A program made the translations under genes and the position numbers. Below are positions 2,141 through 32,100 of a stretch of DNA of 64,000 bases, one piece after another. This stretch comes from Balanoglossus misakiensis (lineage: Eukaryota; Animalia; Hemichordata). How positions within the stretch are numbered: the first letter of the stretch is position 1; each line of letters starts with the position of its first letter. The notes beneath the pieces are model-generated. The model was given only the letters and a program-made list of their open reading frames with translations. It ran no database searches and was not told the DNA's origin. The stretch spans positions 6,721,849 to 6,785,848 of the forward strand of contig CM082597.2 in assembly GCA_040954595.2 (NCBI GenBank). The letters are read 5' to 3'.

Positions 2141-4099
2141 ATGGCTGCAGCATATCCTGGAGGTTTTGAGTTAGACAAAGTTCTGAAAGAGCTTGGTGAG
2201 GATTTCCTCTCCTGTGCGATCTGTCTGGAACTGTTCAAGAAACCCAAAGTCTTGCCATGTGACCATTCATTCTGTGAGTCGTGTCTGACAAAGTTGGTGA
2301 AAGGAAAAGGTCGGTTGAAGTGTCCAACATGCCGTGAGGTATGTAAACTTCCTGCTGGTGGAGTGCCTCAATTGAAAGGTAACTTTTTCATCAACTCATT
2401 GGTCGATCTTTATCAGAGACAAGGTCCCAAAGGACAGGCCAAGTCTATGTGCAGTGGCTGTGGAGATAATGCAGCATCTCACCAATGTATTGACTGCAGT
2501 GAAAGGCTATGCACTTCCTGCACAAAATCACACCAGAAGTTTCTGAGAGGTCACAAGGTCATGACACTAGACGAATACAACAACACAAAATCGTCAACTC
2601 TCTTGAAGCAACAAAAAGTCTTCTGCAGTGTCCATCCTGAAAATGTTGTGAAATTCTACTGTGAGACCTGTAAGGTTATTGTGTGCACAGACTGTGCTAT
2701 TACCAAACATCCAAGTCCCAAACACACCAACACAGATCTGCAAGATGCTGCAAATGACTACACCAAACAGTTGAGAGATCTGTTGTGTCAGGTGACAGAA
2801 AAAGAATGGGGAGCAAAGACAAGCACAACACTGGCCAAACTGAAGAGAGAGACACTGATGGTCGAATGCCAGGAGGAAGAACAGAAAGTGAGACAGAAAA
2901 CAGCAAAGGTCATACAGAAGGCACAGAGGGAGGAGAAACAGTTGATTAAAGAGCTGCAGACAAAATATGGACAGAGAGTAAAGCAGACGGAGGCTCAAAT
3001 AGATGAATGGGAACTGAAACATGGCAACATTGCAAGCCAACGCTGCTACATAGAGACACTGATGCATCATGGGACACCAGCCCAGATCATGGCCACCAAG
3101 CAGGAGACAATACATCACATGGAGGAAATTATCTCCATGGAGACAGAAATTGATGCCAAAGTGGACATGGTGAAATTCCAGCCAGCTGAGGAGACCAAAG
3201 ATGGAGGAATGCTGGGATTGCTTCGTGAAGATTCAGTGTCAGTAGAGACAAAGAAAGGCTTGGTGAAGACCATTGGATGTAAAGGTAATAAAAGTGGCCA
3301 GTTCAATTGCCCTCTAGGTATCAGTATTAACAGACACGGAAACTTTGTCACTGCTGATGCTGGTAACAAGAGAGTACAAATCACTGACAGGGATGGGAAT
3401 TACAAATCAAGTTTCACATTCACTCAGTTTGCACAGCCTTTCTCACCATTCGATGTTGCAATATCAGCTGATGATGAATACTTCATGACAGATTGGTTTA
3501 ACAAACAAATAGTTGTGAGTGATGAGAATGGGTCTCTGATCAAATGCTTTGGGAAAGAAATCAAGAATCCCCTGCGCCTTGCTATTAGTCCTGTAGATGG
3601 AAGTGTGTATGTGAGTGATTGGGATGGAGAGGTCAGTGCTGACACAGACAAAGAGGGTCACTGCATCAGGAAATACACACATGATTGTCAGTACATCAAA
3701 TCATTTGGGAGTTTGGGCACAGGACAGGGACAGTTTGAAGGGCCGGACTTCTTGACTGTTGACAGTTGCGGAGTAGTGTTTGTATCAGACAAGAACAACC
3801 ATCGCATTCAAGCATTTAATGCAGATGGTGAGTTCCTGTTTGCATTTGGAGGTGTTGGTGAAGGTGATGGTAAGATTTATCGGCCAACAGGAATAGTGGC
3901 TGATAAAGCAGGATATCTGTATGTCTGTAACAAGGGAAACAACATAGTGCAGAAATTTGACAACAGAGGTAAATTCATCTGTCGCATTGATAAAGCTGAG
4001 GATGGGTTAGATCGCCCACAAGGTGTCGCTGTGACAGATGACATGGAAGTAGTGGTTGCTGACTGGGGCAATCACTGCCTCAAAGTCTTTGCACAGTGA
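2141..4099 (+). CDS. TRIM-NHL E3 ligase, copy 1 (RING, B-box1, B-box2, coiled coil, 6 NHL repeats; 652 aa; intronless CDS)
   Basis: C3HC4 RING CAIC...LPCDHSFCESC...CPTC; B-boxes CSGC..CIDC..LC..C..H and CSVH...YCETC..VC..C...H; NHL blades (F..P.GI, D..N.R(V/I)Q). First ATG (aagATGg) is at 2141; the ORF-track start 2096 is a GTG. No filamin domain seen. Confidence 0.93.
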   Translation: MAAAYPGGFELDKVLKELGEDFLSCAICLELFKKPKVLPCDHSFCESCLTKLVKGKGRLKCPTCREVCKLPAGGVPQLKGNFFINSLVDLYQRQGPKGQAKSMCSGCGDNAASHQCIDCSERLCTSCTKSHQKFLRGHKVMTLDEYNNTKSSTLLKQQKVFCSVHPENVVKFYCETCKVIVCTDCAITKHPSPKHTNTDLQDAANDYTKQLRDLLCQVTEKEWGAKTSTTLAKLKRETLMVECQEEEQKVRQKTAKVIQKAQREEKQLIKELQTKYGQRVKQTEAQIDEWELKHGNIASQRCYIETLMHHGTPAQIMATKQETIHHMEEIISMETEIDAKVDMVKFQPAEETKDGGMLGLLREDSVSVETKKGLVKTIGCKGNKSGQFNCPLGISINRHGNFVTADAGNKRVQITDRDGNYKSSFTFTQFAQPFSPFDVAISADDEYFMTDWFNKQIVVSDENGSLIKCFGKEIKNPLRLAISPVDGSVYVSDWDGEVSADTDKEGHCIRKYTHDCQYIKSFGSLGTGQGQFEGPDFLTVDSCGVVFVSDKNNHRIQAFNADGEFLFAFGGVGEGDGKIYRPTGIVADKAGYLYVCNKGNNIVQKFDNRGKFICRIDKAEDGLDRPQGVAVTDDMEVVVADWGNHCLKVFAQ

Positions 4100-4122
4100 A
4101 AGTGTCACATCTCAATGTATCA

Positions 4123-4310
4123 ACTGTAGTGAAACCTGTCTATAAACCAGACACCAATGGGAGTGAGAATATATGGTTCGCTTTGCAGAGGTGTCTGGTT
4201 TACAGAGGGTCTTTCAACATGTGGTTTTATGTGAAGGGCACTGGAAAGACTGTTCAGTATAGACAGGTTTCTCGATCAGACTGAGTTTGGTTTAGACAGA
4301 TTTTACTGTA
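4123..4310. mobile_element. Degenerate MITE in the TRIM 3' region
   Basis: Imperfect inverted ends (tgtagtgaaacctgtcta ... tagacagattttactgta) similar to the 545-709 family. Present after all three TRIM stops. Confidence 0.45.
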
Positions 4311-5610
4311 TTTCACTGAAATAAGGCTTACATGTGAAGGTGATGGCAGAACCTGGATGCATATATGCCACATTGGTTTGTAGATTAAGGCCCACTATTT
4401 GTTTGTTCAGTATTTCTGTCTGTAAATATGAACTTTAGTTCTTATTCCACACTATAATACAATTCCAAAATGGCCACTGTTCAGTTTCTTGAAAGAACCT
4501 AGACATGTGCATCATAATTATTGTTGATCAAAGAATTGAATTCAATTCAATTTTCAGCAAAAATAATGCTATCTGTACACATATAGGCTGAACATTGCAT
4601 CATATGCTGTAGGGGTTTCAACAACAAACTGCAGTTGATACAAACAACAACAAAACAAGCAGACACTTGCTGTCACAAAAACTTGAGATGATGACTAATG
4701 TATCGCTCAACTTCAGATTGCATCTGAAGTCACACACATGAAACCAACTGTAGAATGACTTATGACGGCAAACTGGTTGCCTGAGGTTCCTATTCTTCTG
4801 CAGAGACCATGTGCATACAACACTCTCACAACTATAGTTGACATTTCTGTTGGAATAGACAGATTTCTCCCAAAAGAGACATCTCTTTGATTCTTATGAG
4901 AGAACCCCCAGATTTGAAGGAGGAAATGTTTTTCCCATTTGTATCCATGTCAGCCCGATTGGAAAGATGGCAGCAAACTTGTAGTTTTTTTTTCCAGAGA
5001 TGACAAATCTTTCCGAAGGGGGGCATGCAAGTCATAGAGTATTCACATCAGCTGATATTTTTTATTGAACTCAATATTGAGACTTTGAATTTTGGGTTCT
5101 GAGTATAACCAAGATTACACAATTTAAATATTTTTGTGGTGTGGGTTTTTTTAGGTTTAGAAGTATCTTTGAAAAGATTTGTATTTCATGAAGGGACTAT
5201 GTCGCAGTCAACAGTGGCAGCAAAAAAAAAAAAAAAATTATTGACAAAAAATATTTTAGTACTTTCTATGAAGTTATCATGAATTTTGCAATTTGTCTGT
5301 AACATATTGTGAACATTTTACATTGTTTATAATTAATGCAAAGTATATCTGTTGTCCAATTGCTACATTAACACTTTACTGACTAACGATTCCACTGTTG
5401 CCAAGGTGACACTGATAACATGTTGTTTATTGAGTATGTCATGACCGCCTTGTTAATGTACAATTTTTGTCAGTAAAAAAATCTACAGTGACTTTTCACC
5501 GACACAAATCTGACTACACCCAGTTGGAGTCAGAGTCTTTGATATTTTGATGTAAACAGACAACTTTTTTCATCATTTTTCATGTCTTTTAAAGACAAAA
5601 AAGACAAAAA

Positions 5611-6026
5611 AATAATTTCGGAATTCTGGATAATTTATCAGAATTTCCTTTTAATCTTGGATTTCCTTCAACAGACATAAGTGTTGCCATCACCTTGATG
5701 CAACTGTTTCATATAATTCTCTAACAAAATCTGCTGAATTTGTTTTATTCAGCTGATTTTTTCCCCCAAAATTCAGCTGTAGTTTTCACTGATTTTTGCT
5801 TTTTTCCCCATAATCCTGTTGAATTTTTCACTGATTTTTCCCCCAAAAAATTCAGCAAAATTTTACACCAATCAGAGACTTTTGGAAAGGTGTGGCACAA
5901 AATATAGGATTAAAACAAAAATCTAAAGTCACATTTATAAACTTTTAATTATTATTTCTTCACCAATATTAAAAGTTTTCAAATATGAAACGTATTATTT
6001 TTGAAATGTGGAATTCCGAAATTAGT
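5611..6026. mobile_element. TIR-bounded non-autonomous element
   Basis: aatttcggaattc ... gaattccgaaatt inverted ends. Also present at ~31772-32185; absent at ~7130 and ~23030. Confidence 0.55.
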
Positions 6027-6039
6027 TTGGAACATGTAC

Positions 6040-8135
6040 ATATATAATTCAGCTCTATAACAAGACCAATGTTTTTTAGATCACTACATTTATTGAACAT
6101 TTCCACCATGTTATTTTTTGTGGAACAATGTTATCACATTTAGATGAATGATGAATTCATAGCTGAGTGTTATAAATATGTCTGTTGATAAATAATTTCA
6201 AAATATGTTTTCAGATTTTCTTTACTACAATTCAGAGTACTTCCTTAACCCTTTCACCCCCATTTCACTGTGTAAAGGTCCAACTCTGCCATTGGAGAAC
6301 AATGGAGTTAGACCAAACCATGGTGGAGAAAGGGTTAAAACAACTTAGCCTCTTCAGATCCTAATGTGTGTAGGTACTGTTTTTTAATCCATTTTAGTTT
6401 TTGAGCTTTAGTTTTTGAGCTTTAGTTTTTGAGATAACATGTAATGTGTTGACTGTTATCAGTGGTTTTCTACTTTCATGGACTTTAATCAAATTTCCTG
6501 TTTCAACAACTTTTTGTCATTTTACGGGAAATCATAGAATTCATTATTTGCAACATGTTGTCCTCACTTTATTTTTCCTGACTTTGTTTTTGACGATATA
6601 CATTTATAACTCATAAATAATCTGGACAACAAACATGAAAATTATTGATTATTTGGTTGACGATCGATGGACACTAATAACTCACAAATCTGGACAATGA
6701 ACATTACTGAGTTGTTTGGTTGACTGTTTTGAGACCTATTGTATGTTAGTATAATCACCAAGACACTATTTCTGTCGACTTCAGTACTTATCACATGAAC
6801 ATTCGACCACTTAACTTTAATTTACGACGACACAGCTAGCAACATTTTTTTGTAACCATTTAAATTCCTGTAGATTTCTTGATGAGGGGTTTATTATCGG
6901 GTCAACAGTGGCCTTGACATAAATTTGTTAGTGGACCACAATTTTTGGTGAAATCATTCAGTATTTTTTTTTTAAATAACCAAGAATACACTGTAATCAT
7001 GTTTAGTTTGTGTGGACTAACAGCTGATACATTTTAAGTGCAAAATTATATACATGTGGTGCATAAACAGGTTTTCTTTGATATTTTGATGTAAACAGAC
7101 AATTTTTTCTTGATTTTTCATGTTTTTAAAGACACATGTAGAATTCAGCACTATAACATGACCAGTGGTTTTTTAGTCCATTACATTTATTGAGCATTTC
7201 CACCATGTTATTTTTTGTGGAACAATGTTATCACACTTAGATGAATGATGAATTCATAGCTGAGTGTTATAAATGTCTGTTGATAAACAATTTTAAAATA
7301 TGTTTTCAGATTTTCTTTACAGAGTACTTCCTTAACCCTTTCACCCCCATTTCACTGTGTAAAGGTCCAACTCTGCCATTGGAGAACAATGGAGTTACAC
7401 CAAACCATGGTGGAGAAAGGGTTAAAACAACTTAGCCTCTTCAGATCCTAATGTGTGTATGGTACTGTTTTTTCATCCATTTTAGTTTTTGAGCTTTAGT
7501 TTTTGAGATTACTTGTAATGCGTTGACTGTAATCAGTGGTTTTCTACTTTCATGAAATTTAATCAGATTTTCCTGTTTCAACAACTTTTTGTCAATTTAC
7601 AGGAAATCATAGATACATTATTTGCAACATGTTGTACTCACTTTATTTTTCTTGACTTGGTTTTGACGATAACACATATAACTCATAAATAATCTGGACT
7701 GCAAACATGCAAATTATTGATTATTTGGTTGACGATCGATAGACACTTATAACTCACAAATCTGAACAATGAACATTACTGAGTTGTTTGGTTGACTGAT
7801 TTGAGACCTATTGTATGTTAGTATAATCACCAAGACACTGTGTTTCTGTCGACTTCAGTACTTATCACATGAACATTGGACCACTTTATTTTACGACCAA
7901 ACAGCTTGCAACATTTTTTTGTAACCAATTTAAATTCCTGTAGATTTTTTGATGAGGGGTTTATTATCAGGTCAACAGTGGCCTTGACATAAATTTGTTA
8001 GTGGATCACAATTTTTGGTGAAATCATTCGGGTTTTTTTAAATAACCAAGAATACACTGTTATCATGTTTAGTTTGTGTGGACTAACAGCTGATATATTT
8101 TAAGTGCAAAATTCATGTGGTGAATAAACAGGTTT
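6040..8135. repeat. Local ~1-kb direct duplication within unit 1
   Basis: ~6040-7075 is repeated at ~7135-8135; single copy in units 3 and 4. Confidence 0.8.
6249..6334. mobile_element. piggyBac-type mini-MITE
   Basis: TTAA|CCCTTTCACC ... GGAGAAAGGG|TTAA. Copies at ~7336, ~23247 and ~32408. Confidence 0.7.
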
Positions 8136-8191: not shown

Positions 8192-8341
8192 CTTGAAAGT
8201 TGGAGTTACTAGAGAATTAACACTTGTGGAATGACTGTGATTGCGAACATGTTGGTCTTTAAATATAAAAAAAAATTGCTGAAATTTTAGGGACAAGATT
8301 AAAGTTTTTAAAAATAAATACTTATATTGGTACACTATTTA
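8192..8341. repeat. Left copy of ~150-bp direct repeat flanking the LINE (putative TSD)
   Basis: cttgaaagttggag...tacactattta is repeated at 13194-13341; single copy at the empty paralogous sites (~24095-24241, ~33268-33412). Confidence 0.85.
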
Positions 8342-8470
8342 TTATTATTATTATTATTATTTTATTCATATACAGTAGGCCACCGGCCCAAATGTATACA
8401 TATGATTAATACACAAGATATGCATGAGGGTGCCCAACAAAATTAAGCATTTGAGGTTACAAAAAAAAAC

Positions 8471-11400
8471 TTAAGTTGAATCAGCTGCTGTATTTGCTCT
8501 TTTCTTCATAGCATAGAAAATGTATTTAGACAGATTTCGTATCACCGTGCTATTTTCAGACGTACAAAGCAAAACAAATTTTACATAGGATGGTGCAATA
8601 TAGAAGTGTGTAGGCAAATATTTGGCCCTTAAATCATCATAAAACGGACATACAATGCAGAAGTGAAATTCGTCTTCAATGACATTCTTGTCACAAAAAC
8701 AGCAAATTCTTTCAGGACGATTCAATAAAGGTCTATCAGATTCTATTCGTAAAGCATGTGCAGATACTCTTAAGCGACATAAGGCATTGCGATATTTTTC
8801 TTGAAGTGGAACAAAAAGGTACTTTTCCCGCCCAAATGTACACTTGAGATTACAATATGTATCCAACTTTGAATACATTGCCAGACCAGCATGCCATTCT
8901 TGAATAAAAACGTCTTGACATCGCTGTTTAAATAGACTGATAAAAGTATTTATGCACCCAACCCCTTGATTAATCCACACTTCCCCAAAACCTAGTGAAA
9001 ACAATAATTGCTTGACTCCAGAAGCCCAACAATCACGTCCCTTTTCTGCCTCAGAGTGTTCGAAATTATAACAATGGTAGGCAATACGGTAATGTGACAT
9101 CGTCAACAATTTGAACCAATATTTGATAACCCTAGTTAGCCTAAATGTGCGAATAGAAAAACGACCAAGTTCGCCCTTGACTGCAAGATTAGCTGTATTG
9201 TGTTTGAGCTTTAAAATAAAACGACAGAAATCATTATGCACTTTTTCAATCTGTTCCCCTGCATGTAACCCCCAAATTTCGCTTCCATACATCATGATGG
9301 GTAGAATCTTCCCATCAAAAACTTTGAAAGCCAGACTCACATCAATACAGTCAAACTTACATAATGCCCGCTTCACATTAAACAGCGCTTTCGTAGCTTG
9401 TAACGCTAGTTGACCTTGAGCCCGACTCCACAGACCAGAACTGGAAAATAAAATTCCAAGATAGCTGTATGCGGGAACAACCTCTACTCTCTGCCCATTC
9501 AAAAACCATTTCTCTGTAGATTTAAGTCTACCCGCTTTCCTAAAGACAATAATTTTTGATTTGGAAATATTGACTTTGAGCTTCCATTTGCTAGCATATG
9601 AAGATAAATTATTTAGTAATCTCTGAAGGCCAATTTGGGTTGTACTAAATAAAGACAAGTCATCAGCGAAAAGGAGAAAAAAGAGTTTTATAGTGGCAAT
9701 GTGAACTCCTGCATATTCATGTTCAACCGAACCCCCCAAGTCGTTAATGAATAACGTGAAAAGCAAAGGTGACAATAATATGCTGCCTTGCTGCACTCCC
9801 ATTTCACACCTGAAGAAATCTGTAATACCAGCTGGCGAACGAATGCACGCAGTTACATTAGCATACATCGATCGTAAAACAGAAAAAACCTTGCCCTTTA
9901 ACCCTGCTTTAAATAGCTTGTAAAATAAAAGACTGTGGTTAATGCGATCAAAAGCTTTTTCAAAATCAATGAAGGCGCAATACAGTCTTCCACGCAGATA
10001 TAAATACCTTGTAATAATGGTTTGCAAAATAAAAATATTATCAATAGTTGAGTATTTTTTGCGAAATCCTGCTTGTTGTTCCACTAGAGGAAAATGAATA
10101 TTCGACCAGGAAAGCAATCTCTGATAAATTATATCACTGAAAACCTTGTTAATGGTGGGTAACAATGTGATCCCTCTATAATTATTTACATCTTCCCTGG
10201 AGCCTTTTTTGTGAAGCGGGACAATCAACCCTTGCACCCATTGCTTTGGAAAACAGCCAGTGTTGAGAATTGTCTTAAAAATCTGAAGAATCAAATGTTT
10301 AAGTTGAATGGGAGAATTAATCAATATTTCTGGAGAGATCCCGTCAATCCCCGGGGCTTTGTTAGGTTTCAACCTGGAGAGCGAGTTATTCAATTCATCC
10401 ATTGTTATATCAGCATCAAGCTCAGCTAAGTCTAACTGTATATCCTGAAAGTCGTCCTCAGAGGTCAAACCCTCTAAAAAAGAATTAACTTCGTCAATAA
10501 AATCAGAATCCGATTGAGACGTATGTGTACCTGGTTCAGAAAAAAGTTTAGAAAAAAAGTTAAACCACTCGTCATTGCCAATATTTTCTGATGGTCCAGT
10601 ACATTTGGAACTAACTAGTGACCAGAAATGTTTTGAGTTCGGCTGTCTACTATACATTTCAAATTTAAGCTTCTCATTATCATAAAAAGCCCTTTTCTTA
10701 GCTTTTAATAAACACTGATAATTCTTTTTCAATTCCGTATACTTCTTCAGTGCATCTTCAGTTCTACTATTACGAAAATGATTGAGTGACCGACGTACAA
10801 CCCTTTTCATATTGGTACAATCTTGATCAAACCAGCTCTTTGAAATATTAACACCAGTGCCACCACCATGTGGTGGGCAATATTTCATATCCTCCACAGA
10901 AATATGTACTGACTCAATAAGGAGTGACGCTGCTTCAGGAATATTGCCATGGTCAAGTGCAGATGAAATATAATGCGAATAACGATTTCCTAGCTCCCCC
11001 TGCCAAAATAAATGAAAGGTGTCTCTGTGCTCCTCTTTCCAAATGTATTTTGGGAGCTCAACAACCTGCCCATTTGTCTCTATACTCCTAGTCACTGGTT
11101 GCCCCACCTTAATATTAAATAAGACTGGGTGATGATCCGACTCAGGGCGGTCAGAAATAGCAAAGTAACTAAACATCTCAAAGTTTACCAGCCTCGTCAA
11201 GACATAATCTATTACACTACCGCCTTGATCTTTTAAACAAGTGAAGTAGCCCTGGTTTTTATCTTCAAATAACCTGCCATTAACAATCCGCAACCCAGTG
11301 TGCTTACAAAAATCCAATAGTAAATGCCCATATGAATTCACTGTTTTATCTTTTGACACCCTAGGTGGCATGTGATCATCAAAAACGTACTCCTCAGTGA

Positions 11401-12007
11401 TGGGGAGAAAACCGGTATTGTCAAATGTAATGTAATCTGGTTCAACGGACGTTCTAGCATTAAAATCCCCCAGTATAATGAATTTAAAGTCTGGAAACCT
11501 AGCGGAGAGATTTACAAGGTCATCTTCAAGATAAACGAAATTACGCTCATCAGCATAAGAACTTGAACCTTGTGGCGAGAAATATACAACTCCAAAACAG
11601 ACTTTAAGTAAATCGGTGCTGAACTTTACCCATACAATATCCTTGGTAAAGTCACTTTCGAAAATTGTGACCCCGTTGGCCTTACCCAGATTTGAACGAT
11701 AATAAATGCTGATTCCCCCAGAAAATCTCCCAAAATGTTTCAATTTACTACGACTAATATGGCAATTGTCATACCCTCTGAGCAAAAATGATGCATCATT
11801 TGATGTCCAAGTTTCTGTCAAGAAAATCAAATCAAACTTCATCAAATACTTCAGTAAATCAGAATTGTTCCATTTGTTTTGTATACCATTAATGTTCCAC
11901 AGGATGCACGACACATAGTTTTCAGATGCACCCGGAGTCTCACGAACCTCCGCATATTTCTGTAGTGGTGGATTTGGCAGGTTCTCAGTTCCAAGATTCA
12001 TTTCCAT
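8471..12007 (-). CDS. LINE ORF2: AP endonuclease, reverse transcriptase and C-terminal CCHC-type domain (1178 aa)
   Basis: APE motifs WNING, LTETW, GDFNA, IDYVL, SDH. RT motifs KAPGIDG, NYRGITL, QAGFR, FIDFEKAFD, QQGSILLSPLLF, FADD. C-terminal RLRVSAH..RICCFC...EDEFHF...CPFY. Confidence 0.95.
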   Translation of the reverse strand: MEMNLGTENLPNPPLQKYAEVRETPGASENYVSCILWNINGIQNKWNNSDLLKYLMKFDLIFLTETWTSNDASFLLRGYDNCHISRSKLKHFGRFSGGISIYYRSNLGKANGVTIFESDFTKDIVWVKFSTDLLKVCFGVVYFSPQGSSSYADERNFVYLEDDLVNLSARFPDFKFIILGDFNARTSVEPDYITFDNTGFLPITEEYVFDDHMPPRVSKDKTVNSYGHLLLDFCKHTGLRIVNGRLFEDKNQGYFTCLKDQGGSVIDYVLTRLVNFEMFSYFAISDRPESDHHPVLFNIKVGQPVTRSIETNGQVVELPKYIWKEEHRDTFHLFWQGELGNRYSHYISSALDHGNIPEAASLLIESVHISVEDMKYCPPHGGGTGVNISKSWFDQDCTNMKRVVRRSLNHFRNSRTEDALKKYTELKKNYQCLLKAKKRAFYDNEKLKFEMYSRQPNSKHFWSLVSSKCTGPSENIGNDEWFNFFSKLFSEPGTHTSQSDSDFIDEVNSFLEGLTSEDDFQDIQLDLAELDADITMDELNNSLSRLKPNKAPGIDGISPEILINSPIQLKHLILQIFKTILNTGCFPKQWVQGLIVPLHKKGSREDVNNYRGITLLPTINKVFSDIIYQRLLSWSNIHFPLVEQQAGFRKKYSTIDNIFILQTIITRYLYLRGRLYCAFIDFEKAFDRINHSLLFYKLFKAGLKGKVFSVLRSMYANVTACIRSPAGITDFFRCEMGVQQGSILLSPLLFTLFINDLGGSVEHEYAGVHIATIKLFFLLFADDLSLFSTTQIGLQRLLNNLSSYASKWKLKVNISKSKIIVFRKAGRLKSTEKWFLNGQRVEVVPAYSYLGILFSSSGLWSRAQGQLALQATKALFNVKRALCKFDCIDVSLAFKVFDGKILPIMMYGSEIWGLHAGEQIEKVHNDFCRFILKLKHNTANLAVKGELGRFSIRTFRLTRVIKYWFKLLTMSHYRIAYHCYNFEHSEAEKGRDCWASGVKQLLFSLGFGEVWINQGVGCINTFISLFKQRCQDVFIQEWHAGLAMYSKLDTYCNLKCTFGREKYLFVPLQEKYRNALCRLRVSAHALRIESDRPLLNRPERICCFCDKNVIEDEFHFCIVCPFYDDLRAKYLPTHFYIAPSYVKFVLLCTSENSTVIRNLSKYIFYAMKKRANTAADST

Positions 12008-12043
12008 CCGTGGTTGTAGTACACGTGGGCTTCGGCCAACACC

Positions 12044-13051
12044 CTATCTATCACCAACTTTTATCAGATGAGGATCTTTCTTAGTGACATCAAGTATAAA
12101 AACCTCACCTTCGATAACTAACTTATCGTAGCGCAAATGTGCCTTTTTGTTGTCTCTTCTGGCAGCTGACAGGAAAGGACCCAGTTTTCTTCGCTTTTCT
12201 CGAATCAGAGGAGGGAGATCTTCAGAAACACGGAGCGGTCCATCACGAGCGAGATGTTTGCTTTCTCGGAAAACTTTATCCCTGCCTTTACATCTGTTAA
12301 ATTTCACCACCACTGGCTGTGGACGGGTTTTGGCTTTGGTCAGTCTATGTGCCCGCTCTATTTCAATGTTCTCACTTTCCAGTGCCAGCTCTTTGTCAAT
12401 GAAGTCTCGCACCTTCGTTTCAGTATCTTCCCAATTTTCACTCTCATCTTGCTGCAGCCCATGTATAATTAAATTATTTCTGCGAAGTTGGCCATTTGTA
12501 TAATCCTGTTGTGATTCCATTCGGTCCAGTCTGTTTCTCAGTTCGATATTTTCAGATTCCAGTTCACCTATTCGTTGGTTCGCTGCAGCTATTTCCTGTT
12601 CCACACCTTTTAAGCCTTCCTTCAGCTCCACTGCTCTTTTTTCCGCCTTTATTTCAAGTTGGGAAAACTTGTCTTCGAGAGATACGTGCAGTTTTGACAT
12701 CTGAGCGTCAATAAACGCTTTCAGTTCGTCGACAATAGCATTCTTGTCTGTATTCTGGATTTGGGTTGGAGTTGGCAAAATATCTTCACCGCTGGAGGCA
12801 AATTTTGCTTCTGTTAATTTGCTTTGTCGTGTTTTCCTGTCCGTTGTTGATTCTGTCTTGTCCGTGGCTGGAGCTTTGGGGCCGGGGTTGCGTTCAACAT
12901 CGCCACATGTCAAAAGCGTCAAGAACAATGCCATGCAGACAAAGGAATTCACAGGTACCTTGTCAGTGCCAACGTGGCCGCCGAGCATTGCTTGCAGAGG
13001 CTGAGAGAAACATCCAATTCTTTGCCGCCACACTGTCAGTGCAACACCCAT
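12044..13051 (-). CDS. LINE ORF1: N-terminal 2A leader, coiled coil and L1-type RRM/CTD (335 aa from the first ATG)
   Basis: ATG at 13051 (MGVALTVWRQRIG). Heptad-rich region, then RRNNLIIHGL...IERAHRL...PVVVKF...VSEDLP...RRKL...YDKLVI, typical of L1/Transposase_22-like ORF1p. Confidence 0.88.
   Translation of the reverse strand: MGVALTVWRQRIGCFSQPLQAMLGGHVGTDKVPVNSFVCMALFLTLLTCGDVERNPGPKAPATDKTESTTDRKTRQSKLTEAKFASSGEDILPTPTQIQNTDKNAIVDELKAFIDAQMSKLHVSLEDKFSQLEIKAEKRAVELKEGLKGVEQEIAAANQRIGELESENIELRNRLDRMESQQDYTNGQLRRNNLIIHGLQQDESENWEDTETKVRDFIDKELALESENIEIERAHRLTKAKTRPQPVVVKFNRCKGRDKVFRESKHLARDGPLRVSEDLPPLIREKRRKLGPFLSAARRDNKKAHLRYDKLVIEGEVFILDVTKKDPHLIKVGDR
12878..12916 (-). other. 2A/StopGo ribosome-skipping motif LLTCGDVERNPG|P
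   Basis: Exact D(V/I)ExNPGP consensus. Differs by one residue from the last 13 aa of T2A (LLTCGDVEENPGP). Confidence 0.9.
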
Positions 13052-13193
13052 GACCACTTGTACTATTTCTTCTCTACTTCAAGTAAACGTATATGCAACT
13101 TTTCAGCCGCCAATTGCCAACAAACAGGAAATTTTTGGGAAAAGTTGGAGACACCAGACATACGCGACGTCTACGGTAGTTCAGTAAACAGCG

Positions 13194-13341: not shown

Positions 13342-14546
13342 GAAATCCTGCATTTTTGACACACAATTTAGCATTCAGGACGCAATATTTATTTGACTTG
13401 CATCATTCAAGGGGACACAGTATCAGAGCGAACTCAAAACAATGTGCATGGTCATTCCTGACAGTAGCCGTATGTACACTACAGCACGTATCAGGGTCAG
13501 CCTCAACTGTGACGCCAATCATGGTTGAATCAGTTCTGAAAATAAACTTCCAACTAAAATTCACTGTATCACTAAACTGCAAATTAACATTTGGGTCTGT
13601 TCTAAATGTACCTTATACATGACAAGGTGGGTGTACACTTGCATAGGCCACCAGGAGGGACTGGGCATAGGGTTACTTCTGTCAATTGGAAAACGGAATT
13701 GAGATGATGACAGAGCTCAACATTGATACATCAGTCAGGAAAATGTGAATCACCTCGTCCACTTGTGCGTCAAATGACAAAACAAACACAGTCTGGCTGC
13801 AACACTAAAGCTGTACTACATGCAAAATCCCCCTCCACGGTCAAACTTCAACACTTCAAAACACAGCACCTCTATGTAGTGGCCACTTTGTTACAGTCCC
13901 TGTGCAATTTACATATGCATTAATTGACCTGTCTATAAAGGCCATTATCTGTCTATAAAGGCCAGTTCAGAAGAGTCCCTTAACTGGCCACTATAGACAG
14001 GTTCGACTGTACTACAGCAGATCAACATCATCAGGCACCTGTGCATGGGTCCTAATACAATGTAATTGTTCTAACTGTGGCCAAAACAAATTTGCTGGCA
14101 TACCAAACCCCCACCCCCAGAAATCAAATGGTTCTTCCCTAAGAAGCAATACAACAGATTTATTCCACATAAAGTGTAGACAGAATTGTTATCATACAAT
14201 CAGCCACTGACTCACACAGTAACCTGCAATATAGGCCAACTCTTTCATTCTCTGTCAAAGTTTGCAACTGTTATCTTTGTGTAAAGAATTGCCCATTGTG
14301 TTACTTCCAGAACTTTAGACCTCAACTTGTGGGTGGATTCAACACCCCAGCCAGTTTAAAAATAGCTGTACTAGCCGAGATAAGAAGTGAATAGAAATTG
14401 CTGACTAACAGTTTAATAAAAAACTGTTTATCTAGCAATTGATGCCAAATGAAATGAAACTTAATTTCATATACAAGCAGCAAAAAATATAATAATATTA
14501 TCTGATGTTTTTGTAGTGTTGCTATAGTAACACTGTTAGTTGTCAC

Positions 14547-15809: not shown

Positions 15810-16457
15810 TGTCACCAGGTTGTCTTCAAGAAAAAAAATTCAAATTTCACTATTGATATAATACCATCCATCATGAAGAAATATGGTTCCTCACACAAAT
15901 TCTGTATCGGGAAATTGGTTGCCAGAGATGGAACTTTCATGCAGACACAATGTGTATGTTTATAATTTGCAATGAATGTTTGCAAAGATTTGTGAAAATA
16001 CAAGAAGAGACAAACAGCTCACAATGTCTAATGAGTACCAAGAAATCTGGGACGGTTCATTTGTATAATGTGATGATGTGTCCCACTTTCAGTTCAATAT
16101 ATCGGTATTTGTCAACTGTACCCAGTCAAAGTTTACATTCATTCTCTTCTCAGTGATTCATTGTGTTCAAGTTTGACCTTTTGACCTCAACTCTCAGGTA
16201 CTCAGTCGGTATAGGTAGACCCTGGTATTTGCTGAATCACTGAATTCAATTTATCATGTGACTTTGGTGGCTTGCCAAGTTTTTATAAACTACAGCACGT
16301 ATCAGGGTCGGCCTCAACTGTGACGGCAATCATGGTTTAATCAGTTCTGAAAATAAACTTCCAACTAAAATTCACTGTATCACTAAACTGCAAATTACAG
16401 CTACATTTGTGTAACATTTGGGTCTGTTCTAAATGTACGTTATACATGACAAGGTGG
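15810..16457 (+). pseudogene. TRIM-deleted unit: TRIM upstream region fused directly to TRIM downstream region
   Basis: Follows the TRIM upstream sequence to 'ttttataaac' (16290), then continues as 'tacagcacgtatcaggg', which lies ~5.3 kb further on in unit 3 (~19048 vs ~24380). Confidence 0.85.
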
Positions 16458-19124: not shown

Positions 19125-21074
19125 ATGGCTGCAGCATATCCTGGAGGTTCCGAGTTAGACAAAGTTCTGAACGAGATTGGTGAGAATTTCCTCTCCTGTG
19201 CGATCTGTCTGGAACTGTTCAAGAAACCCAAAGTCTTGCCATGTGACCATTCATTCTGTGAGTCGTGTCTGACAAAGTTGGTGAAAGGAAAAGGTCGGTT
19301 GAAGTGTCCAACATGCCGTGAGGTATGTAAACTTCCTGCTGGTGGAGTGCCTCAATTGAAAGGTAACTTTTTCATCAACTCGTTGGTCGATCTTTATCAG
19401 AGACAAGGTCCCGAAGGACAGGCCAAGTCTATGTGCAGTGTCTGTGCAGATAATGGCGCATCTCACCAATGTATTGACTGCAGTGAAAGGCTATGCACTT
19501 CCTGCACAAAATCACACCAGAAGTTTCTGAGAGGTCACAAGGTCATGACACTAGACGAATACAACAACACAAAATCGTCAACTCTCCTGAAGCAACAAAA
19601 AGTCTTCTGCAGTGTCCATCCAGAAAATGTTGTCGAAGTCTACTGTGAGACCTGTATGGTTTCTGCATGCACGGCTTGTGCTGTTACCAAACACAACAAA
19701 CACACCAACACAGATCTGCAAGATGCTGCAAATGACTACACCAAACAGTTGAGAGATCTGCTGTGTCAGGTGACCGAAAAAGAACTGGGAGCAGAGAGAA
19801 GCAAAACAGATGCCAAACTGATGAGACAGAAACTGATGGTCAGATGCCAGGAGGAAGAACAGAAAGTGAGACAGAAAACAGCAAAGGTCATACAGAAGGC
19901 ACAGAGGGAGGAGAAACAGTTGATTAAAGAGCTGCAGACAAAATATGGACAGAAAGTAAAGCAGACGGAGGCTCTAATAGATGAGTGGGAACTGAAACAT
20001 GGCAACATTGCAAGCCAACGCTGCTACATAGAGACACTGATGCATCATGGGACACCAGCCCAGATCATGGCCACCAAGCAGGAGACAATACATCACATGG
20101 AGGAAATTATTTCCATGGAGACAGAAATTGATGCCAGAGTGGACATGGTGAAATTCCAGCCAGCTGAGGAGACCAAAGATGGAGGAATGCTGGGATTGCT
20201 TCGTGAAGATTCAGTGTCAGTAGAGACAAAGAAAGGCTTGGTGAAGACCATTGGATGTAAAGGTAACAAAGGTGGCCAGTTCTATGGCCCAAATGGTATC
20301 AGTATTAACAGACACGGAAACTTTGTCACTGCTGATGAGGGTAACAAGAGAGTACAAATCACTGACAGGGATGGGAAATACAAATCAAGTTTCACATTCA
20401 CTCAGTTTGCACAGCCTTTCACACCACGCGATGTTGCAATATCAGCTGATGATGAATACTTCATGACAGATAGGAATAACAAACAAATAGTTGTGAGTGA
20501 TGAGAATGGGTCTCTGATCAAATGCTTTGGGAAAGAAGTCAAGAATCCCCTGCGCCTTGCTATTAGTCCTGTAGATGGAAGTGTGTATGTGAGTGATTGG
20601 GATGGAAAGGGTGCTGACACAGACAAAGAGGGTAACTGCATCAGGAAATACACACATGATTGTCAGTATATCAAATCATTTGGTAGTTTTGGCACAGGAC
20701 AGGGACAGCTTAGAGGGCCTCAGTTCTTGACTGTTGACAGTTGTGGAGTAGTGTTTGTATCTGATATGGGCAACAATCGCATTCAAGCATTTAATGCAGA
20801 TGGTGAGTTCCTGTTTGCATTTGAAAAATTTGGTGAAGGTGATGGTAGGCTTCGTTCAATAACAGGAATAGTGGCTGATAAAGCAGGATATCTGTATGTC
20901 TGTGATACGAAAAACAAGAATGTGCAGAAATTTGACAACAGAGGTAAATTCATCTGTCGCATTGATAAAGCTGAGGATGGGTTAGATCGCCCAGCTGGTG
21001 TAGCTGTGACAGATGACATGGAAGTAGTGGTTGCTGACTGGGGCAACGACTGCCTCAAAGTCTTTGCACAGTGA
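19125..21074 (+). CDS. TRIM-NHL E3 ligase, copy 2 (649 aa; intronless CDS)
   Basis: Same architecture as copy 1; ATG at 19125. Confidence 0.93.
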   Translation: MAAAYPGGSELDKVLNEIGENFLSCAICLELFKKPKVLPCDHSFCESCLTKLVKGKGRLKCPTCREVCKLPAGGVPQLKGNFFINSLVDLYQRQGPEGQAKSMCSVCADNGASHQCIDCSERLCTSCTKSHQKFLRGHKVMTLDEYNNTKSSTLLKQQKVFCSVHPENVVEVYCETCMVSACTACAVTKHNKHTNTDLQDAANDYTKQLRDLLCQVTEKELGAERSKTDAKLMRQKLMVRCQEEEQKVRQKTAKVIQKAQREEKQLIKELQTKYGQKVKQTEALIDEWELKHGNIASQRCYIETLMHHGTPAQIMATKQETIHHMEEIISMETEIDARVDMVKFQPAEETKDGGMLGLLREDSVSVETKKGLVKTIGCKGNKGGQFYGPNGISINRHGNFVTADEGNKRVQITDRDGKYKSSFTFTQFAQPFTPRDVAISADDEYFMTDRNNKQIVVSDENGSLIKCFGKEVKNPLRLAISPVDGSVYVSDWDGKGADTDKEGNCIRKYTHDCQYIKSFGSFGTGQGQLRGPQFLTVDSCGVVFVSDMGNNRIQAFNADGEFLFAFEKFGEGDGRLRSITGIVADKAGYLYVCDTKNKNVQKFDNRGKFICRIDKAEDGLDRPAGVAVTDDMEVVVADWGNDCLKVFAQ

Positions 21075-26195: not shown

Positions 26196-29100
26196 CTATG
26201 TTCTATTTTGTTGTGAAGCTATTAACTTAATAATTCTTCTTCCCAAGTGGGCATTGTGTTGTTGCAGGTATCTAATCATATCAGCTTGCTTCTCCAAAAT
26301 ATCATCCACCTGATTACTATCCCTGTAACAAACAAAATACAAAAACACTCATTAAAATCACAAATTTACTTCAATTCCAAACCAAGGTAGCGATTTGACG
26401 CGCTCGCGTTTGTGTGTGGCTGGGCAACAGGTGTCTGCCGATGTCAAACTGCCATAGCTGTAGTATACTATGTTTACAGTATACAGTCAAACCTGTATTA
26501 GTGGCTACCTCTATATAGTGGCCACTTTGTTACAGTCCCTGTGCAATTTACATATGCATTAATTGACCTGTCTATAAAGACCAGTTCAGGAGAGTCCCTT
26601 AACTGGCCACTATAGACAGGTTCGACTGTACTACAGCAGATCAACATCATCAGGCACCTGTGCATGGGTCCTAATACAATGTAATTGTTCTAACTGTGGC
26701 CAAAGCAAATTTGCTGGCATACCAAACCCCCACCCCCAGAAATCAAATGGTTCTCCCCTAAGAAGCAATACAACAGATTTATTCCACATAAAGTGTAGAC
26801 AGAATTGTTATCATACCAATATCAGCCACTGACTCACACAGTAACCTGCAATATAGGCCAACTCTTTCATTCTCTGTCAAAGTTTGCAACTGTTATCTTT
26901 GTGTAAAGAATTGTCCATTGTGTTACTTCCAGAACTTTTGACCTCAACTTGTGGGTGGATTCAACACCCCAGCCAGTTTAAAAACAGCTGTACTAGCCGA
27001 GATAAGAAGTGAATAGAAATTGCTGACTAACAGTAAAATCAAAAACTGTTTATCTAGCAATTGATGCCAAATGAAATGAAACTTAATTTCATATACAAGC
27101 AGCAAAAAATATAATAATATTATCTGATGTTTTTGTAGTGTTGCTATAGTAACACTGTTAGTTGTCACCAATGTTTCAGCTAGCGCACGGCCTTGCGACA
27201 TTCGACGCAATAAATGTTGGATTGTCGCAACATAATAATCTTTATGGGTCACTTTGACGCATTCTTACTGAGTGAGCAACAATATGACTGATTGTCACCC
27301 CTGCACTTTTGCTTTGCGTCCACCTTTGCTTTCACTGTAACTTGTTACTCCCTTTCAATATTTGATAATTTAGTGAACACAACTGAGTGATTTCACACCT
27401 TCCACAGCTGTAATCACCCTACAAGCAACACAGCTCTGCACGCTGTCAAGAGCAGTGCGCTGCCATTTCATTCAGTGCACAAGTTATCTTTACACAGGCG
27501 TCCTATAAATAGCATCAATAGCCTAGTAACACAAGCAACGCACTGAGCTTATGCGCATTGCAACAACTTAGCTAAACTTAACAAATGATGAAGCAAATTT
27601 TGTTGGAGGTCATGCCATGTGTCTGTGCATCTGTACATACTTATAAAATTAACAGCACCCCAGGGCTAGTAATAATTGCGCAGGGCAGGTAAATTATAGG
27701 AAATTCGATAGATAGTATTTTGGATTAGCAACTGATAAGGACAGGTGGGGGTAACACAGAAAAATAAACAAGCACAAAGACTGCAATTACTGTTTATTGG
27801 GCGAAAAATGCACAACAAAACTCCGCCATAACTTTAATGTTTGCAACCCCCCCCCCCCCCCCTTTGTTTGCAAAGATTTGTGAAAATACAAGAAGAGACA
27901 AATAATTTGCAATGAATGTTTGCAAAGGTTTGTGAAAATACAAGAAGAGACAAACAGCTCACAATGTCTAATGAGTACCAAGAAATCTGGGACGGTTCAT
28001 TGGTATAATGTGATGATGTGTCCCACTTTCAGTTCAATATATCGGTATTTGTCAACTGTACCCAGTCAAAGTTTACATTCATTCTCTTCTCAGTGATTCA
28101 TTGTGTTCAAGTTTGACCTTTTGACCCCAACTCTCAGGTACTCAGCCGGTCCTAGGTAGACCCTGGTATTTGCTGAATCACTGAATTCAATTTATCATCT
28201 GACTTTGGTGGCTTGCCACGTTTTTATAAACCCCTAACTCAGTCAAAATTAATGACACTATACTGAACAGTGTGTTGCTATGTGATTACAAGCATTTTGA
28301 CTCGAGCTGCAAAGATGGCTGCAGCATATCCTGGAGGTTCCGAGTTAGACAAAGTTCTGAACGAGCTTGGTGAGGATTTTCTCTCCTGTGCGATCTGCCT
28401 GGAACTGTTCAAGAAACCCAAAGTCTTGCCATGTGACCATTCATTCTGTGAGTCGTGTCTGACAACACTGGTGACAAAGAAAGGTAAGCTGAACTGCCCA
28501 ACATGCAGTACGCCATGTCAGCTTCCTGGTGGGGGTGTGACTGAACTGAAAGTCAACTTTTTCATCAACTCGTTGACAGATCTGTATCTGAAAAAGCGTC
28601 CTACAGAGAGTGACTCAAAGCCTTCTGTGTGTAACGGATGTGAAGAAAATGATGGAACTCACTATTGCATCGACTGCAGTGTGAATATGTGTGATTCCTG
28701 CACTAAACCGCACAGAAAAATTCTGAAAGGTCACAAGGTCATGACACTGGATGAATACAAAAATACAGAATCGTCAACTCTCCTGAAGCAACAAAAAGTC
28801 TTCTGCAGTGTCCATCCTGAAAATGTTGTCGAAGTCTACTGTGAGACCTGTATGGTTTCTGCATGTACAGCTTGTGCTGTTACCAAACACAACAAACACA
28901 CCAACACAGATCTGCAAGATGCTGCAAATGACTACACCAAACAGTTGAGAGATCTGCTGTGTAAGGTGACCGAAAAAGAACTGGGAGCAGAGAGAAGCAA
29001 AACAGATGCCAAACTGATGAGACAAAAACTGATGGTCGGATGTCAGGAGGAAGAACAGAAAGTGAGACAGAAAACAGCAAAGGTCATACAGAAGGCACAG

Positions 29101-32100
29101 AGGGAGGAGAAACAGTTGATTAAAGAGCTGCAGACAAAATATGGACAGAGAGTAAAGCAGACGGAGGCTCTAATAGATGAGTGGGAACTGAAACATGGCA
29201 ACATTGCAAGCCAACGCTGCTACATAGAAACACTGATGCATCATGGGACACCAGCCCAGATCATGGCCACCAAGCAGGAGACAATACATCACATGGAGGA
29301 AATTATCTCCATGGAGACAGAAATTGATGCCAGAGTGGACATGGTGAAATTCCAGCCAGCTGAGGAGACCAAAGATGGAGGAATGCTGGGAATGCTTCGT
29401 GAAGATTCAGTGACAGTAGAGACAAAGAAAGGCTTGGTGAAGACCATTGGATGTCAAGGTAACAAAGGTGGGCAGTTCAAAAGCCCTCATGGTATCAGTA
29501 TTAACAGACACGGAAACTTTGTCACCACTGAATTTGATAACAAGAGAGTACAAATCACTGACAGGGATGGGAAATACAAATCAAGTTTCACATTCACTCA
29601 GTTTGCACAGCCTTTCAGACCCCTCGATGTTGAAATATCAGCTGATGATGAATACTTCATGACAGATAGGAATAACAAACAAATAGTTGTGAGTGATGAG
29701 AATGGGTCTCTGATCAAATGCTTTGGGAAAGAAGTCAAGAATCACCTGCGCCTTGCTATTAGCCCTGTAGATGGAAGTGTGTATGTGAGTGATTGGGATG
29801 GAAAGCCCAGTGCTGACACAGACAAAGAGGGTAACTGCATCAGGAAATACACACATGATTGTCAGTACATCAAATCATTTGGGAGTTTTGGCACAGGACA
29901 GGGACAGTTCAGAGGGCCTGACTTCTTGACTGTTGACAGTTGTGGAGTTGTGTTTGTATCAGACACGAACAACCATCGCATTCAAGCATTTAATGGAGAT
30001 GGTGAGTTCCTGTTTGCATTTGGAGAATTTGGTGAAGGTGATGGTAAGATTTATCGGCCAACAGGAATAGTGGCTGATAAAGCAGGATATCTGTATGTCA
30101 GTGACAGGGGAAACAACAATGTGCAGAAATTTGACAACAGAGGTAAATTCATCTGTCGCATTGATAAAGCTGAGGATGGGTTAGATCGCCCACGAGGTGT
30201 CGCTGTGACAGATGACATGGAAGTAGTGGTTGCTGACTGGGGCAATCACTGCCTCAAAATCTTTGCACAGTGAAAGTGTCACATCTCAATGTATCAACTG
30301 TAGTGAAACCTGTCTATAAACCAGACACCAATGGGAGTGAGAATATTGTTCGATTTGCAGAGGTGTCTGGTTTACAGAGGGTCTTTCAACATGTGGTTTT
30401 ATGTGAAGGGCACTGGAAAGAGTGTTCGGTATAGACAGGTTTCCAGATCAGACTGAGTTTGGTTTAGACAGATTTTACTGTATTTCACTGAAATAAGGCT
30501 TACATGTGAAGGTGATGGCAGAACCTGGATGCATATATGCCACATTGGTTTGTAGATTAAGGCCCACTATTTGTTTTTTTTCAGTATTTCTGTCTGTAAA
30601 TATGAACTATTCTTATTCCACACTATAATACCATTCTAAAATGGCCACTGTTCAGTTTGTTGAAAGAACCTAGACATGTGCATCATTATTACTGTTGATC
30701 AAGGAATTGAATTCAATTCAATTTTCAGCAATAATAATGCTTATCTGTACACATATAGGCTAGACATTTCATCAAATGCTGTATGGGTTTCAACAACAAA
30801 CTGCAGTTGATACAAACAACAACAAAACAAGCAGACACTTGCTGTCACAAAAAACTTGAGATGATGACTAATGTATCGCTCAACTTCAGATTGCATCTGA
30901 AGTCACGCACATGAAACCAACTGTAGAATGACTTATGACGGCAAACTGGTTGCCTGAGCTTCCTATTCTTCTGCAGAGACCATGTGCATACAACACTCTC
31001 ACAACTATAGTTGACATTTCTGTTGGAATAGACAGATTTCTCCCAAAAGAGACATCTCGTTGATTCTTATGAGAGAACCCCCAGATTTGAAGGAGGAAAT
31101 GTTTTACCCACTTGTGTCCATGTCAGCCCGATTGGAAAGATGGCAACAAATTTGTAGTTTTTTTCCCAAGATGACAAATCTTTCCAAATAGGGACATGCA
31201 AATCATGCAGTATTCACATCAGCTGATATTTTTTTTAATTGAACTACAGATAGAGACTTTGAATTTTGGGTTCTGAGTATAACCAAGATTACACAATTTT
31301 TAAATTGTTTTGTGGTGTTGGTTTTTTTTTTTTAGTTTACAAGTATGTTTGAAAAGATTTGTATTTCATGAAGGGACTATGTCGCAGTCAACAGTGGCAG
31401 CAAAAAGGCAATTTACTGAAAAAAATATCAGTGCTTTTTATGAAGTTATCACGAGTTTTGCATTTTGTCTGTAACAAATTGTGAACATTTACATGGTTCA
31501 TAATTAAAGCAAAGTATATCTGTTGTCCAATTGCTACATTAACAGTTAACTGACTAACAATTCCACTGCTGCCAAGGTAACACTGATAACATGTTTTTTA
31601 TTGAGTATGTCATGACCTCCTTGTTACTGTACAATTTTTGTCTGTAAAAAATCTACAATGACTGTTCACCGACAAAATCTGACTACACCCAGTTGGAGTC
31701 AGAGTCTTTGATATTTTGATGTAAACAGACAGCTTTTTCACGATTTTTCATGTTTTTTAAAGAGAAAAAAAATAGTTTCGGAATTCCGGATAATTTTTCA
31801 GAATTTCCTTTTTATCTTGGATTTTCTTCAACAGACATAAGTGTTGCCATCACCTTGATGCAAATGTTTTATATATTTCTCCAACAAAATCTGCTGAATT
31901 TGTTTTATTCAGCTGATTTTTTCCCCAAGATTCAGATGTACTTTTCACTGATTTTTTGCTTTTTACCCAAAATTCTGTTGAATTTTTCACAGATTTCCCC
32001 CCCAAAAAATTCAGCAGAATTTTACACCAATCAGAGACTTTTGGAAAGGTGTGGCACAAAATATAGGATTAAAACAAAAATCTAATGTCACATTTATAAA

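Follow-up and report, generated by a model that had tools for sequence, protein, structure and literature searches.

The three TRIM-NHL genes found in the window, a 64,000-nucleotide stretch of Balanoglossus misakiensis DNA, are probably best understood as recent tandem copies of a large acorn-worm family, in which the top face of the propeller has diverged faster than neutral and which would serve as an inherited cytosolic sensor repertoire. The closest reading is that of a diversified sensor family of the TRIM5/finTRIM kind built on the NHL fold; the immune role is suggested by analogy and by indirect hints, namely the birth-and-death array, death-effector domain (DED) fusions in relatives, and the antiviral TRIM56. 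The preliminary description of this DNA had proposed diversifying selection on a ligand-binding face. Support for this proposal comes from a codon test on preset sites, from the recurrence of the amino-acid pattern in three other acorn worms, and from conserved orthologues that serve as a negative control. New in the present analysis are the mosaicism of the genes, the gene loss in a fourth unit, the absence of the LIN41 basic pocket, and the death-effector domain in some family members.

Gene array and domain architecture

The window carries three intact tandem genes, each a single ORF with the order RING-Bbox1-Bbox2-coiled-coil-NHL (Table 1), and the copies are 85–90% identical to copy 1. 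PF00097 scores above the cut-off in all three, giving each the N-terminal C3HC4 RING of a TRIM-NHL protein. The B-boxes match PF00643, and the region from the B-boxes to the coiled coil, the latter assigned from position and homology, aligns through to the family profile. No transmembrane segment was found in the copies (maximum 19-residue hydropathy 1.2–1.5). Nor do they match the filamin domain PF00630, profile positions 369–456 being skipped, and the domain is absent from Ptychodera flava (P. flava) P0001 too. The filamin domain occurs in TRIM2/3/71 and not in TRIM32 or Brat, and is not required for TRIM-NHL. Judged by their domains, the copies are members of TRIM-NHL class VII (subfamily C) and predicted E3 ligases. 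A model folded from one sequence was poor (pLDDT 45), and an alignment-based AlphaFold model was used instead, in which the NHL propeller has 24 strands in six blades (pLDDT 96). A Foldseek search returned a TM of 0.90 to the TRIM2 NHL, the nearest solved structures being TRIM2, TRIM3 and Thin (TM 0.86–0.90). Since the identity to any solved member is only ~30%, the copies are not taken as orthologues of TRIM2/3/71, whatever the database names say.

Table 1 Features of the TRIM-NHL array, in window positions
Feature	Position	Strand	Remarks
Duplicated block around copy 1	1688..7076	+	92.6% identity with 27865-33216; within it, 1727-5534 vs 18718-22500, 93.6% identity
TATA-like box	2050..2055	+	~80-90 bases upstream of ATG; in all three copies; putative promoter element
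TRIM-NHL copy 1	2141..4099	+	652 aa, single ORF; RING aa 25-64, B-box1, B-box2 158-196, coiled coil, NHL aa 373-652
Divergent tract private to copy 1	2651..2866	+	B-box2 and coiled-coil start, codons ~171-242
Six-bladed NHL propeller, copy 1	3257..4096	+	Equivalents ~20235-21071 (copy 2), ~29431-30270 (copy 3)
Two-ORF LINE retrotransposon in unit 1	8342..13193	-	ORF2 endonuclease-reverse transcriptase 8474-12043; ORF1 within 12047-13078
Fourth unit without gene	13868..16290	+	Upstream part kept to TATA-like box, then jump to downstream spacer
TRIM-NHL copy 2	19125..21074	+	649 aa; divergence greatest in blades 4-5; one-codon indel in blade-3 b-c loop
TRIM-NHL copy 3	28315..30273	+	652 aa
Divergent tract, copy 3	28465..28770	+	Late RING to B-box1, codons ~51-152; dS 0.3-0.9

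A fourth unit has lost its TRIM-NHL gene. The jump in this unit shows a 5-base overlap (16286–16290), and tblastn found no TRIM remnant either there or further within the window. The LINE in unit 1, flanked by a 150-base direct repeat (8192–8341 and 13194–13341), is a passenger outside the TRIM-NHL system. An AATAAA signal is absent within 1.8 kb downstream of each of the three copies, an Rfam scan of 1–42400 gave no match, and 33800–42400 holds no long ORF of note.

Could the array be an assembly artefact of stacked haplotypes, with the differences being allelic? The 3–7% divergence of the flanks would fit very heterozygous marine invertebrates. We nevertheless consider this very improbable. 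One diploid locus cannot give three different states in three copies, as seen at ten positions of the propeller and at that of the indel; among the units, moreover, one has gained a LINE and one has lost its gene. Furthermore, another sample gives 57 and 65 contigs over a 246-base stretch, depths that were not taken as copy number. The face-specific variation would hold even if two of the copies were allelic.

Variation and selection on the propeller top face

The variable sites had been described as lying on one face, and this is borne out by the predicted structure. With top and bottom faces set from predicted secondary structure, 42 of the 46 variable positions fall in the top half (42/153 versus 4/126 in the bottom half; Fisher p=1e-8). 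When only surface loops are considered, 31/96 positions vary in the d-a and b-c loops (top) versus 2/55 in the a-b and c-d loops (bottom; p=2e-5). These structure-derived classes, together with 14 positions from the literature, replaced a first top-face definition that had been drawn after the data were seen (35/82 versus 11/198). The 14 positions are RNA contacts of zebrafish LIN41 (PMC5908797), which were fixed beforehand and transferred to the copies; 11 of the 14 equivalents vary, as opposed to 31/139 other top positions (p=4e-5).

The motifs and codon strings quoted in the preliminary description all agree with the alignment of the three copies, as do the multi-base codon changes: two or three bases differ in 33/113 top-half codon differences versus 0/20 in the bottom half, summed over the three pairs. 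Two of its statements need narrowing. Not all blades are variable in both of their loops: the three LIN41-contact equivalents in blade 3 (476, 478 and 495) are invariant. And the near-identical framework applies to the propeller bottom and the distal coiled coil, but not to the whole gene, in which copies 1 and 3 carry divergent tracts. A separate DNA sample adds variants at codons 392, 435, 437 and 452–453, and 7 of its 24 listed differences were assigned by hand to the bottom half.

The three genes are mosaics made by segment exchange between paralogues. Across 146 informative codons there are 46 runs versus 89 expected, while the per-codon runs test inside the NHL alone is not significant (p=0.06). 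The divergent tract of copy 3 is 63% identical to P. flava P0001, compared with 57% for copy 1 and 56% for copy 2, and was likely imported from a paralogue that is older and lies beyond the window.

At the DNA level, where the selection tests use three sequences, the 14 contact codons have a pN of 0.33–0.45 versus a flank divergence of 0.03–0.07 and a bottom-half pS of 0.035–0.058. A fixed-site codon model gives these codons an omega of 8.2–8.4 (p ~4e-9). When the local rate is freed, omega is 3.3–5.5 (p 1e-5 to 0.016) and that of the neighbouring codons 0.7–1.0; this holds with and without double-base changes and at three window widths, and p stayed below 0.02 in all 12 fits. The site-blind comparison of M1a and M2a gives a 2dL of 29.5, with omega 7.8 on 16% of sites; p rises to 0.04 once the rate may vary among sites, and to 0.08 when double-base changes are allowed as well, which is the most lenient null. 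The four codon models agree in flagging ten codons (390, 392, 407, 435, 437, 551, 571, 581, 598 and 627, numbered as in copy 1), each of which lies in the top half. For the top half taken together, the mean pN/pS is only ~1.0–1.4. The ORFs and the propeller bottom face are under purifying selection.

Two complications, both missed in the preliminary description, weaken a naive dN/dS reading, namely the recombinant mosaics and the raised synonymous change beside the loops (9/41.5 sites versus 6/112.8 elsewhere, p=0.005; a local rate 2–3 times higher near the contact sites). Because of recombination among the copies, the single-tree assumption fails. It could be argued that there is no positive selection at all: the top loops would be free of constraint, and gene conversion between numerous old paralogues would homogenise framework and flanks but stall at, or import, divergent loop patches, mimicking a high dN/dS. 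The sharp tract borders of the mosaic genes, the local synonymous rate, the site-blind result under the most flexible null and the frequent multi-base codon differences would all fit. We judge this explanation improbable, since the preset contact codons retain their elevated omega with the local rate freed, and the bottom loops, which are equally exposed, are practically invariable. In addition, many independent clades of three other species vary at the same positions, and purifying selection acts on the ORFs and the bottom face.

Relatives and the LIN41 contact positions

The nearest relatives of the copies are acorn-worm TRIMs (best 62%), and the first 70 matches are all from acorn worms; an NHL-only homologue search was dominated by bacterial multi-NHL proteins. 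In a quick tree, from which P0050 was left out for its short match, the relatives form dozens of lineage-specific paralogues in species-specific clades. Among 33 disjoint close pairs from P. flava, G. talaboti and S. kowalevskii, contacts differ at 209/425 positions versus 228/1810 in bottom loops, 47/135 proteins having been left out for short profile matches, nearly all non-hemichordates among them. Pair by pair, contacts exceed bottom loops in 29/33, fall below them in 3 and tie in 1. As a negative control, proteins with the LIN41 contact signature, which is carried by P0092, P0096, P0099 and P0118, were compared over their last 300 residues: contacts differ at 0/13 and 1/13, bottom loops at 25/54 and 13/54. 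Judged by these proteins, true LIN41 orthologues hold the contact positions fixed.

The conserved RNA-binding basic pocket of LIN41, as judged by residue identity, is absent from the three copies, a point likewise missed in the preliminary description. Of the 14 contact equivalents, 2, 2 and 4 are Lys/Arg in copies 1, 2 and 3 versus 8 in LIN41; copies 1 and 2 share at most one of these residues with LIN41, and copy 3 shares two. Across the family, the contact positions are rich in Tyr (13%), Asn (12%), Gly (12%) and Asp (11%). With the basic pocket absent, we consider a protein or some other non-RNA surface a somewhat likelier ligand than an RNA hairpin of the LIN41 type.

The binding face may truly be under selection without pathogens being the driver. 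The copies would then be specificity variants of a Brat/LIN41/TRIM2-like regulator that binds RNA or protein, tracking targets within the animal itself that evolve fast, for instance RNAs of transposons, selfish elements, or proteins of gametes and of allorecognition. LIN41 and Brat read RNA with the same surface, and quick change of the top face among developmental NHL subfamilies is already published (PMC5908797), so that such divergence is not specific to immunity. The nearest solved structures, as noted, are TRIM2, TRIM3 and Thin, and the top half of copies 2 and 3 is slightly basic (K+R 24 and 23 versus D+E 21). On the other hand, developmental NHL orthologues keep the contact positions fixed, Lys/Arg is sparse at the contact equivalents, and lineage-specific paralogues, gene loss and DED fusions would suit defence genes better. 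On balance, an endogenous driver seems unlikely.

Known TRIM systems and a proposed sensor repertoire

Most of what is known of TRIM-NHL proteins concerns conserved, single-copy genes that regulate mRNA and cell fate. With class VII, or Marin subfamily C (TRIM2, TRIM3, TRIM32, TRIM71/LIN41, Thin/Abba, Mei-P26 and Brat), the copies share the RING, B-boxes, coiled coil, six-bladed NHL and ligand face. They differ in having no filamin domain, in their single coding ORF, and in forming a tandem birth-and-death multigene array; moreover, their ligand face is hypervariable rather than fixed, and the LIN41 RNA-contact residues are not kept. TRIM56 and TRIM32 are antiviral members of subfamily C, but single-copy ones, in contrast to the putative diversified repertoire here.

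Positively selected TRIM repertoires have been described for vertebrate B30.2 TRIMs. TRIM5alpha and the fish finTRIMs (class IV, B30.2/PRY-SPRY) are reported as clustered, duplicated TRIM E3 genes with recombination and with positive selection on loops of the C-terminal recognition domain (PMC2657112). The copies are likewise clustered and recombinant, with positive selection on ligand-binding loops, albeit weaker under the most flexible site-blind null. Their recognition domain, however, is NHL rather than B30.2/PRY-SPRY, making them a functional analogue and not a member. Also, finTRIMs came to light as transcripts induced by virus, and for TRIM5 the capsid is known as a ligand; for the copies a foreign ligand is a prediction. 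Within the NHL-like proteins, human TRIM56 is reported to bind viral RNA through its NHL-like domain and to restrict viruses (PMC11768893). Our literature search found no description of a diversified acorn-worm TRIM-NHL family.

For the sensor repertoire that we favour, the following mode of action is proposed. Each copy would bind a different foreign ligand and then tag it with ubiquitin. From general TRIM biology, the coiled coil would pair two chains and so display two propellers, binding to a repetitive target would bring the RINGs together and thereby start ubiquitination, and either degradation of the target or a signal would follow. Family members in which a death-effector domain replaces the RING would link the propeller to caspase signalling; the P. 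flava gene models P0061 and P0204 are DED-filamin-NHL. Diversity would come from duplication, selected point mutation and segment exchange, the last of which would homogenise the framework while the loops stay different. More broadly, marine invertebrates may possess a large germline-encoded repertoire of NHL-propeller cytosolic receptors, whose paratope, formed by the six top loops, owes its diversity to selection and segment exchange and whose effectors (RING ligase or death-effector domain) are swappable, a proposal to which we give slightly less than an even chance.

Hemichordates are the sister group of echinoderms, near the deuterostome base. An NHL-based repertoire in this phylum, if true, would mean that the strategy of combining a TRIM with a hypervariable recognition domain arose on another fold as well. 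Invertebrates would thereby have an equivalent of the TRIM5/finTRIM and NLR repertoires, carried by a fold best known from RNA control in development, and a large family mis-annotated as 'TRIM2/3/45/71-like' would become candidate intracellular immune receptors. The three copies constitute a ready experiment, with near-identical scaffolds differing at ~40 top-face residues, in which ligand specificity can be compared directly.

Variation and probable selection on one face of the propeller

The preliminary description quoted a series of motifs that differ between the three NHL domains, and every one matches the alignment of copies 1–3. An alignment-based AlphaFold model of the domain has 24 strands (pLDDT 96) and matches the propellers of TRIM2, TRIM3, Thin and TRIM71 with TM scores of 0.82–0.90. 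By the usual convention, the top face of a propeller comprises the d-a and b-c loops. With residue classes drawn from the strand boundaries of the model, which are topological classes and not measured surfaces, 42 of 153 top-half positions vary among the copies versus 4 of 126 in the bottom half; for loop positions so classified, the counts are 31/96 (top) and 2/55 (bottom). Variable sites are concentrated on one face, as had been proposed.

An independent set of sites was provided by the 14 RNA-contacting residues of zebrafish LIN41 given by Kumari et al. 2018 (PMC5908797). Transferred to copy 1 through profile alignments, these correspond to residues 389, 390, 407, 408, 435, 452, 453, 476, 478, 495, 536, 551, 581 and 599, all 14 in the top class. 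As a check on the mapping, four database proteins show LIN41 residues at the contact columns (13 of 14 columns filled). Eleven of the 14 contact positions vary among the copies versus 31 of the 139 other top positions (p = 4e-5). Copies 1, 2 and 3 carry 2, 2 and 4 basic residues there, versus 8 in LIN41, whose RNA-binding pocket is not retained.

At the contact codons pN is 0.33–0.45; in the bottom half pN is 0.003–0.014 and pS 0.035–0.058. Our own codon models of the three sequences, run site-blind, favored M2a over M1a (2dL 29.5, omega 7.8), with p = 0.002 when double-base changes were allowed, 0.04 with site-rate variation and 0.08 with both. This drop matters because synonymous variation is itself raised at invariant codons beside the loops, being 0.22 per site versus 0.05 elsewhere and 0.08 in the flank, in windows partly chosen around variable sites. 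In a fixed-site model (12 fits), the sites were set beforehand and a free local rate was given to contact codons and their neighbors. Omega was then 3.3–5.5 at the 14 contact codons (p = 1e-5 to 0.016), hence above one, 0.7–1.0 at neighboring codons and 0.44–0.58 over the remainder. These values at preset sites support diversifying selection, which for three recombining sequences we regard as highly probable, short of certainty. The earlier proposal of such selection on one binding surface is supported at the contact codons and falls short in the site-blind test under its most flexible null.

An expanding and contracting array

Copies 1–3 encode, in order, a RING, two B-boxes, a coiled-coil region and NHL; domain and profile searches of the proteins found no filamin domain. 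Judged by this domain content, they are members of the TRIM-NHL class. They are not orthologues of LIN41, nor members of the TRIM5/finTRIM groups, yet they evolve like the latter. The best 70 of 120 matches listed come only from the acorn worms Ptychodera flava, Glandiceps talaboti and Saccoglossus kowalevskii, the closest among the matches listed being 62% identical over the full length. The database has no entry for the protein of the window itself, whose source, judged by these matches, is likely another acorn worm. A rapidly built tree of 76 NHL domains contains many species-specific clades; in it, copies 1–3 form a single clade (SH-aLRT 98) adjoining three P. flava proteins.

Features of the array and its surroundings
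Feature	Position	Strand	Description
TRIM-NHL copy 1 ORF	2141–4099	+	no frameshift, no internal stop
TRIM-NHL copy 2 ORF	19125–21074	+	no frameshift, no internal stop
TRIM-NHL copy 3 ORF	28315–30273	+	no frameshift, no internal stop
Two-ORF LINE interrupting unit 1	8342–13193	-	full-length, both ORFs open
88-base satellite	42386–62748		231 copies, 96% match, 28% GC

The copies are embedded in duplicated blocks 92–94% identical across 3.8–5.4 kb, with immediate flanks diverging by 3–7%. A fourth unit has lost its gene and retains the upstream sequence up to a TATA-like box at 16290. Its deletion junction (16286–16290), directly after that box, has a 5-base overlap, which suggests microhomology-mediated loss of the whole gene.

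Informative sites are clustered: over 146 codons they fall into 46 runs where 89 would be expected; the same analysis found no comparably long runs in the 3' flank. In copy 3, dS reaches 0.3–0.9 along a RING/B-box1 tract; a B-box2 tract is private to copy 1, and in blades 4–6 most differences are carried by copy 2. The mosaicism likely arose from segment exchange drawing on more paralogues than lie within the window. Where selection maintains differences between genes that undergo gene conversion, synonymous divergence is expected on theoretical grounds to peak locally around the selected sites.

The LINE has an endonuclease-reverse transcriptase frame of 1190 aa and an (AAT)n 3' tail. Its flanking direct repeat (150 bases, 97% identical) is unusually long and likely a target-site duplication. 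Close to the start of ORF1 is a DxExNPGP motif similar to a 2A ribosome-skipping peptide; 2A-type peptides in non-LTR elements are already published. Several direct and inverted repeats of 150–260 bases at 36981–39203 (77–83% identity) are possibly old non-autonomous DNA transposon copies. The satellite begins 12 kb from copy 3, and the array may adjoin heterochromatin.

The pattern in other proteins and DNA

Leaving out copies 1–3, 88 of 135 proteins were kept and 33 disjoint closest pairs of acorn-worm NHL domains formed, some of them possibly allelic or based on duplicate gene models. Differences affect 209/425 contact, 780/2892 top-loop and 228/1810 bottom-loop positions; the contact rate is higher than the bottom-loop rate in 29 pairs, lower in 3 and equal in 1. 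Three P. flava pairs (database homologues P0002/P0010, P0023/P0026 and P0016/P0019) differ at only 0–2 of the 14 contact positions, as if the ligand had become fixed in some sub-clades of the family.

In six of 17 non-hemichordate pairs the pattern is reversed, with the top conserved: two of these six carry the LIN41 signature, three are of cnidarian type, and the sixth is a further pair. The remaining 11, drawn from database homologues P0079–P0113, are top-biased in 10 cases; on these comparisons, top-face hypervariability reaches at least one further lineage beyond acorn worms.

In one separate DNA sample, contigs cover the gene in many variant forms, a stretch of 246 bases being spanned by 57 and 65 contigs. 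They show further states, alleles and paralogues not being separable, at codons 392, 435, 437 and 452–453, including KS, LG and YG at 452–453 (hand translation from loose contig ends); 7 of the 24 listed differences lie in the bottom half.

A candidate immune-sensor repertoire

A full-text search that covered few subscription journals found no published description of TRIM-NHL arrays, in hemichordates or in any other invertebrate group, that are hypervariable and under positive selection. In related reports, the NHL RNA-binding surface evolves rapidly between subfamilies (PMC5908797), TRIM subfamily C and domain swaps specific to amphioxus are described (PMC3503706), NHL and B-box orthogroups are expanded in merulinid corals (PMC11639872), and primate TRIM2 shows weak selection outside known domains (PMC3845644). 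Indirect support for an immune role comes from two other groups: finTRIMs were discovered as virus-induced genes and have the evolutionary pattern of copies 1–3, but on B30.2 (PMC2657112), and TRIM56 uses an NHL-like domain to restrict viruses (PMC11768893). Two predicted P. flava gene models, P0061 and P0204, join a death-effector domain to B-box/filamin/NHL or filamin/NHL of this family, and a domain search of the two found no RING match.

The genes of the array keep their TRIM scaffold intact and the body of the propeller conserved, the ligand face evolves faster than neutral, and the array expands and contracts. On this analysis we lean towards the copies being immune sensors in the full sense. 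Every paralogue would have its own binding specificity, for a ligand that would be foreign and itself evolving; binding would lead to ubiquitination or, in members bearing a death-effector domain, to death signalling.
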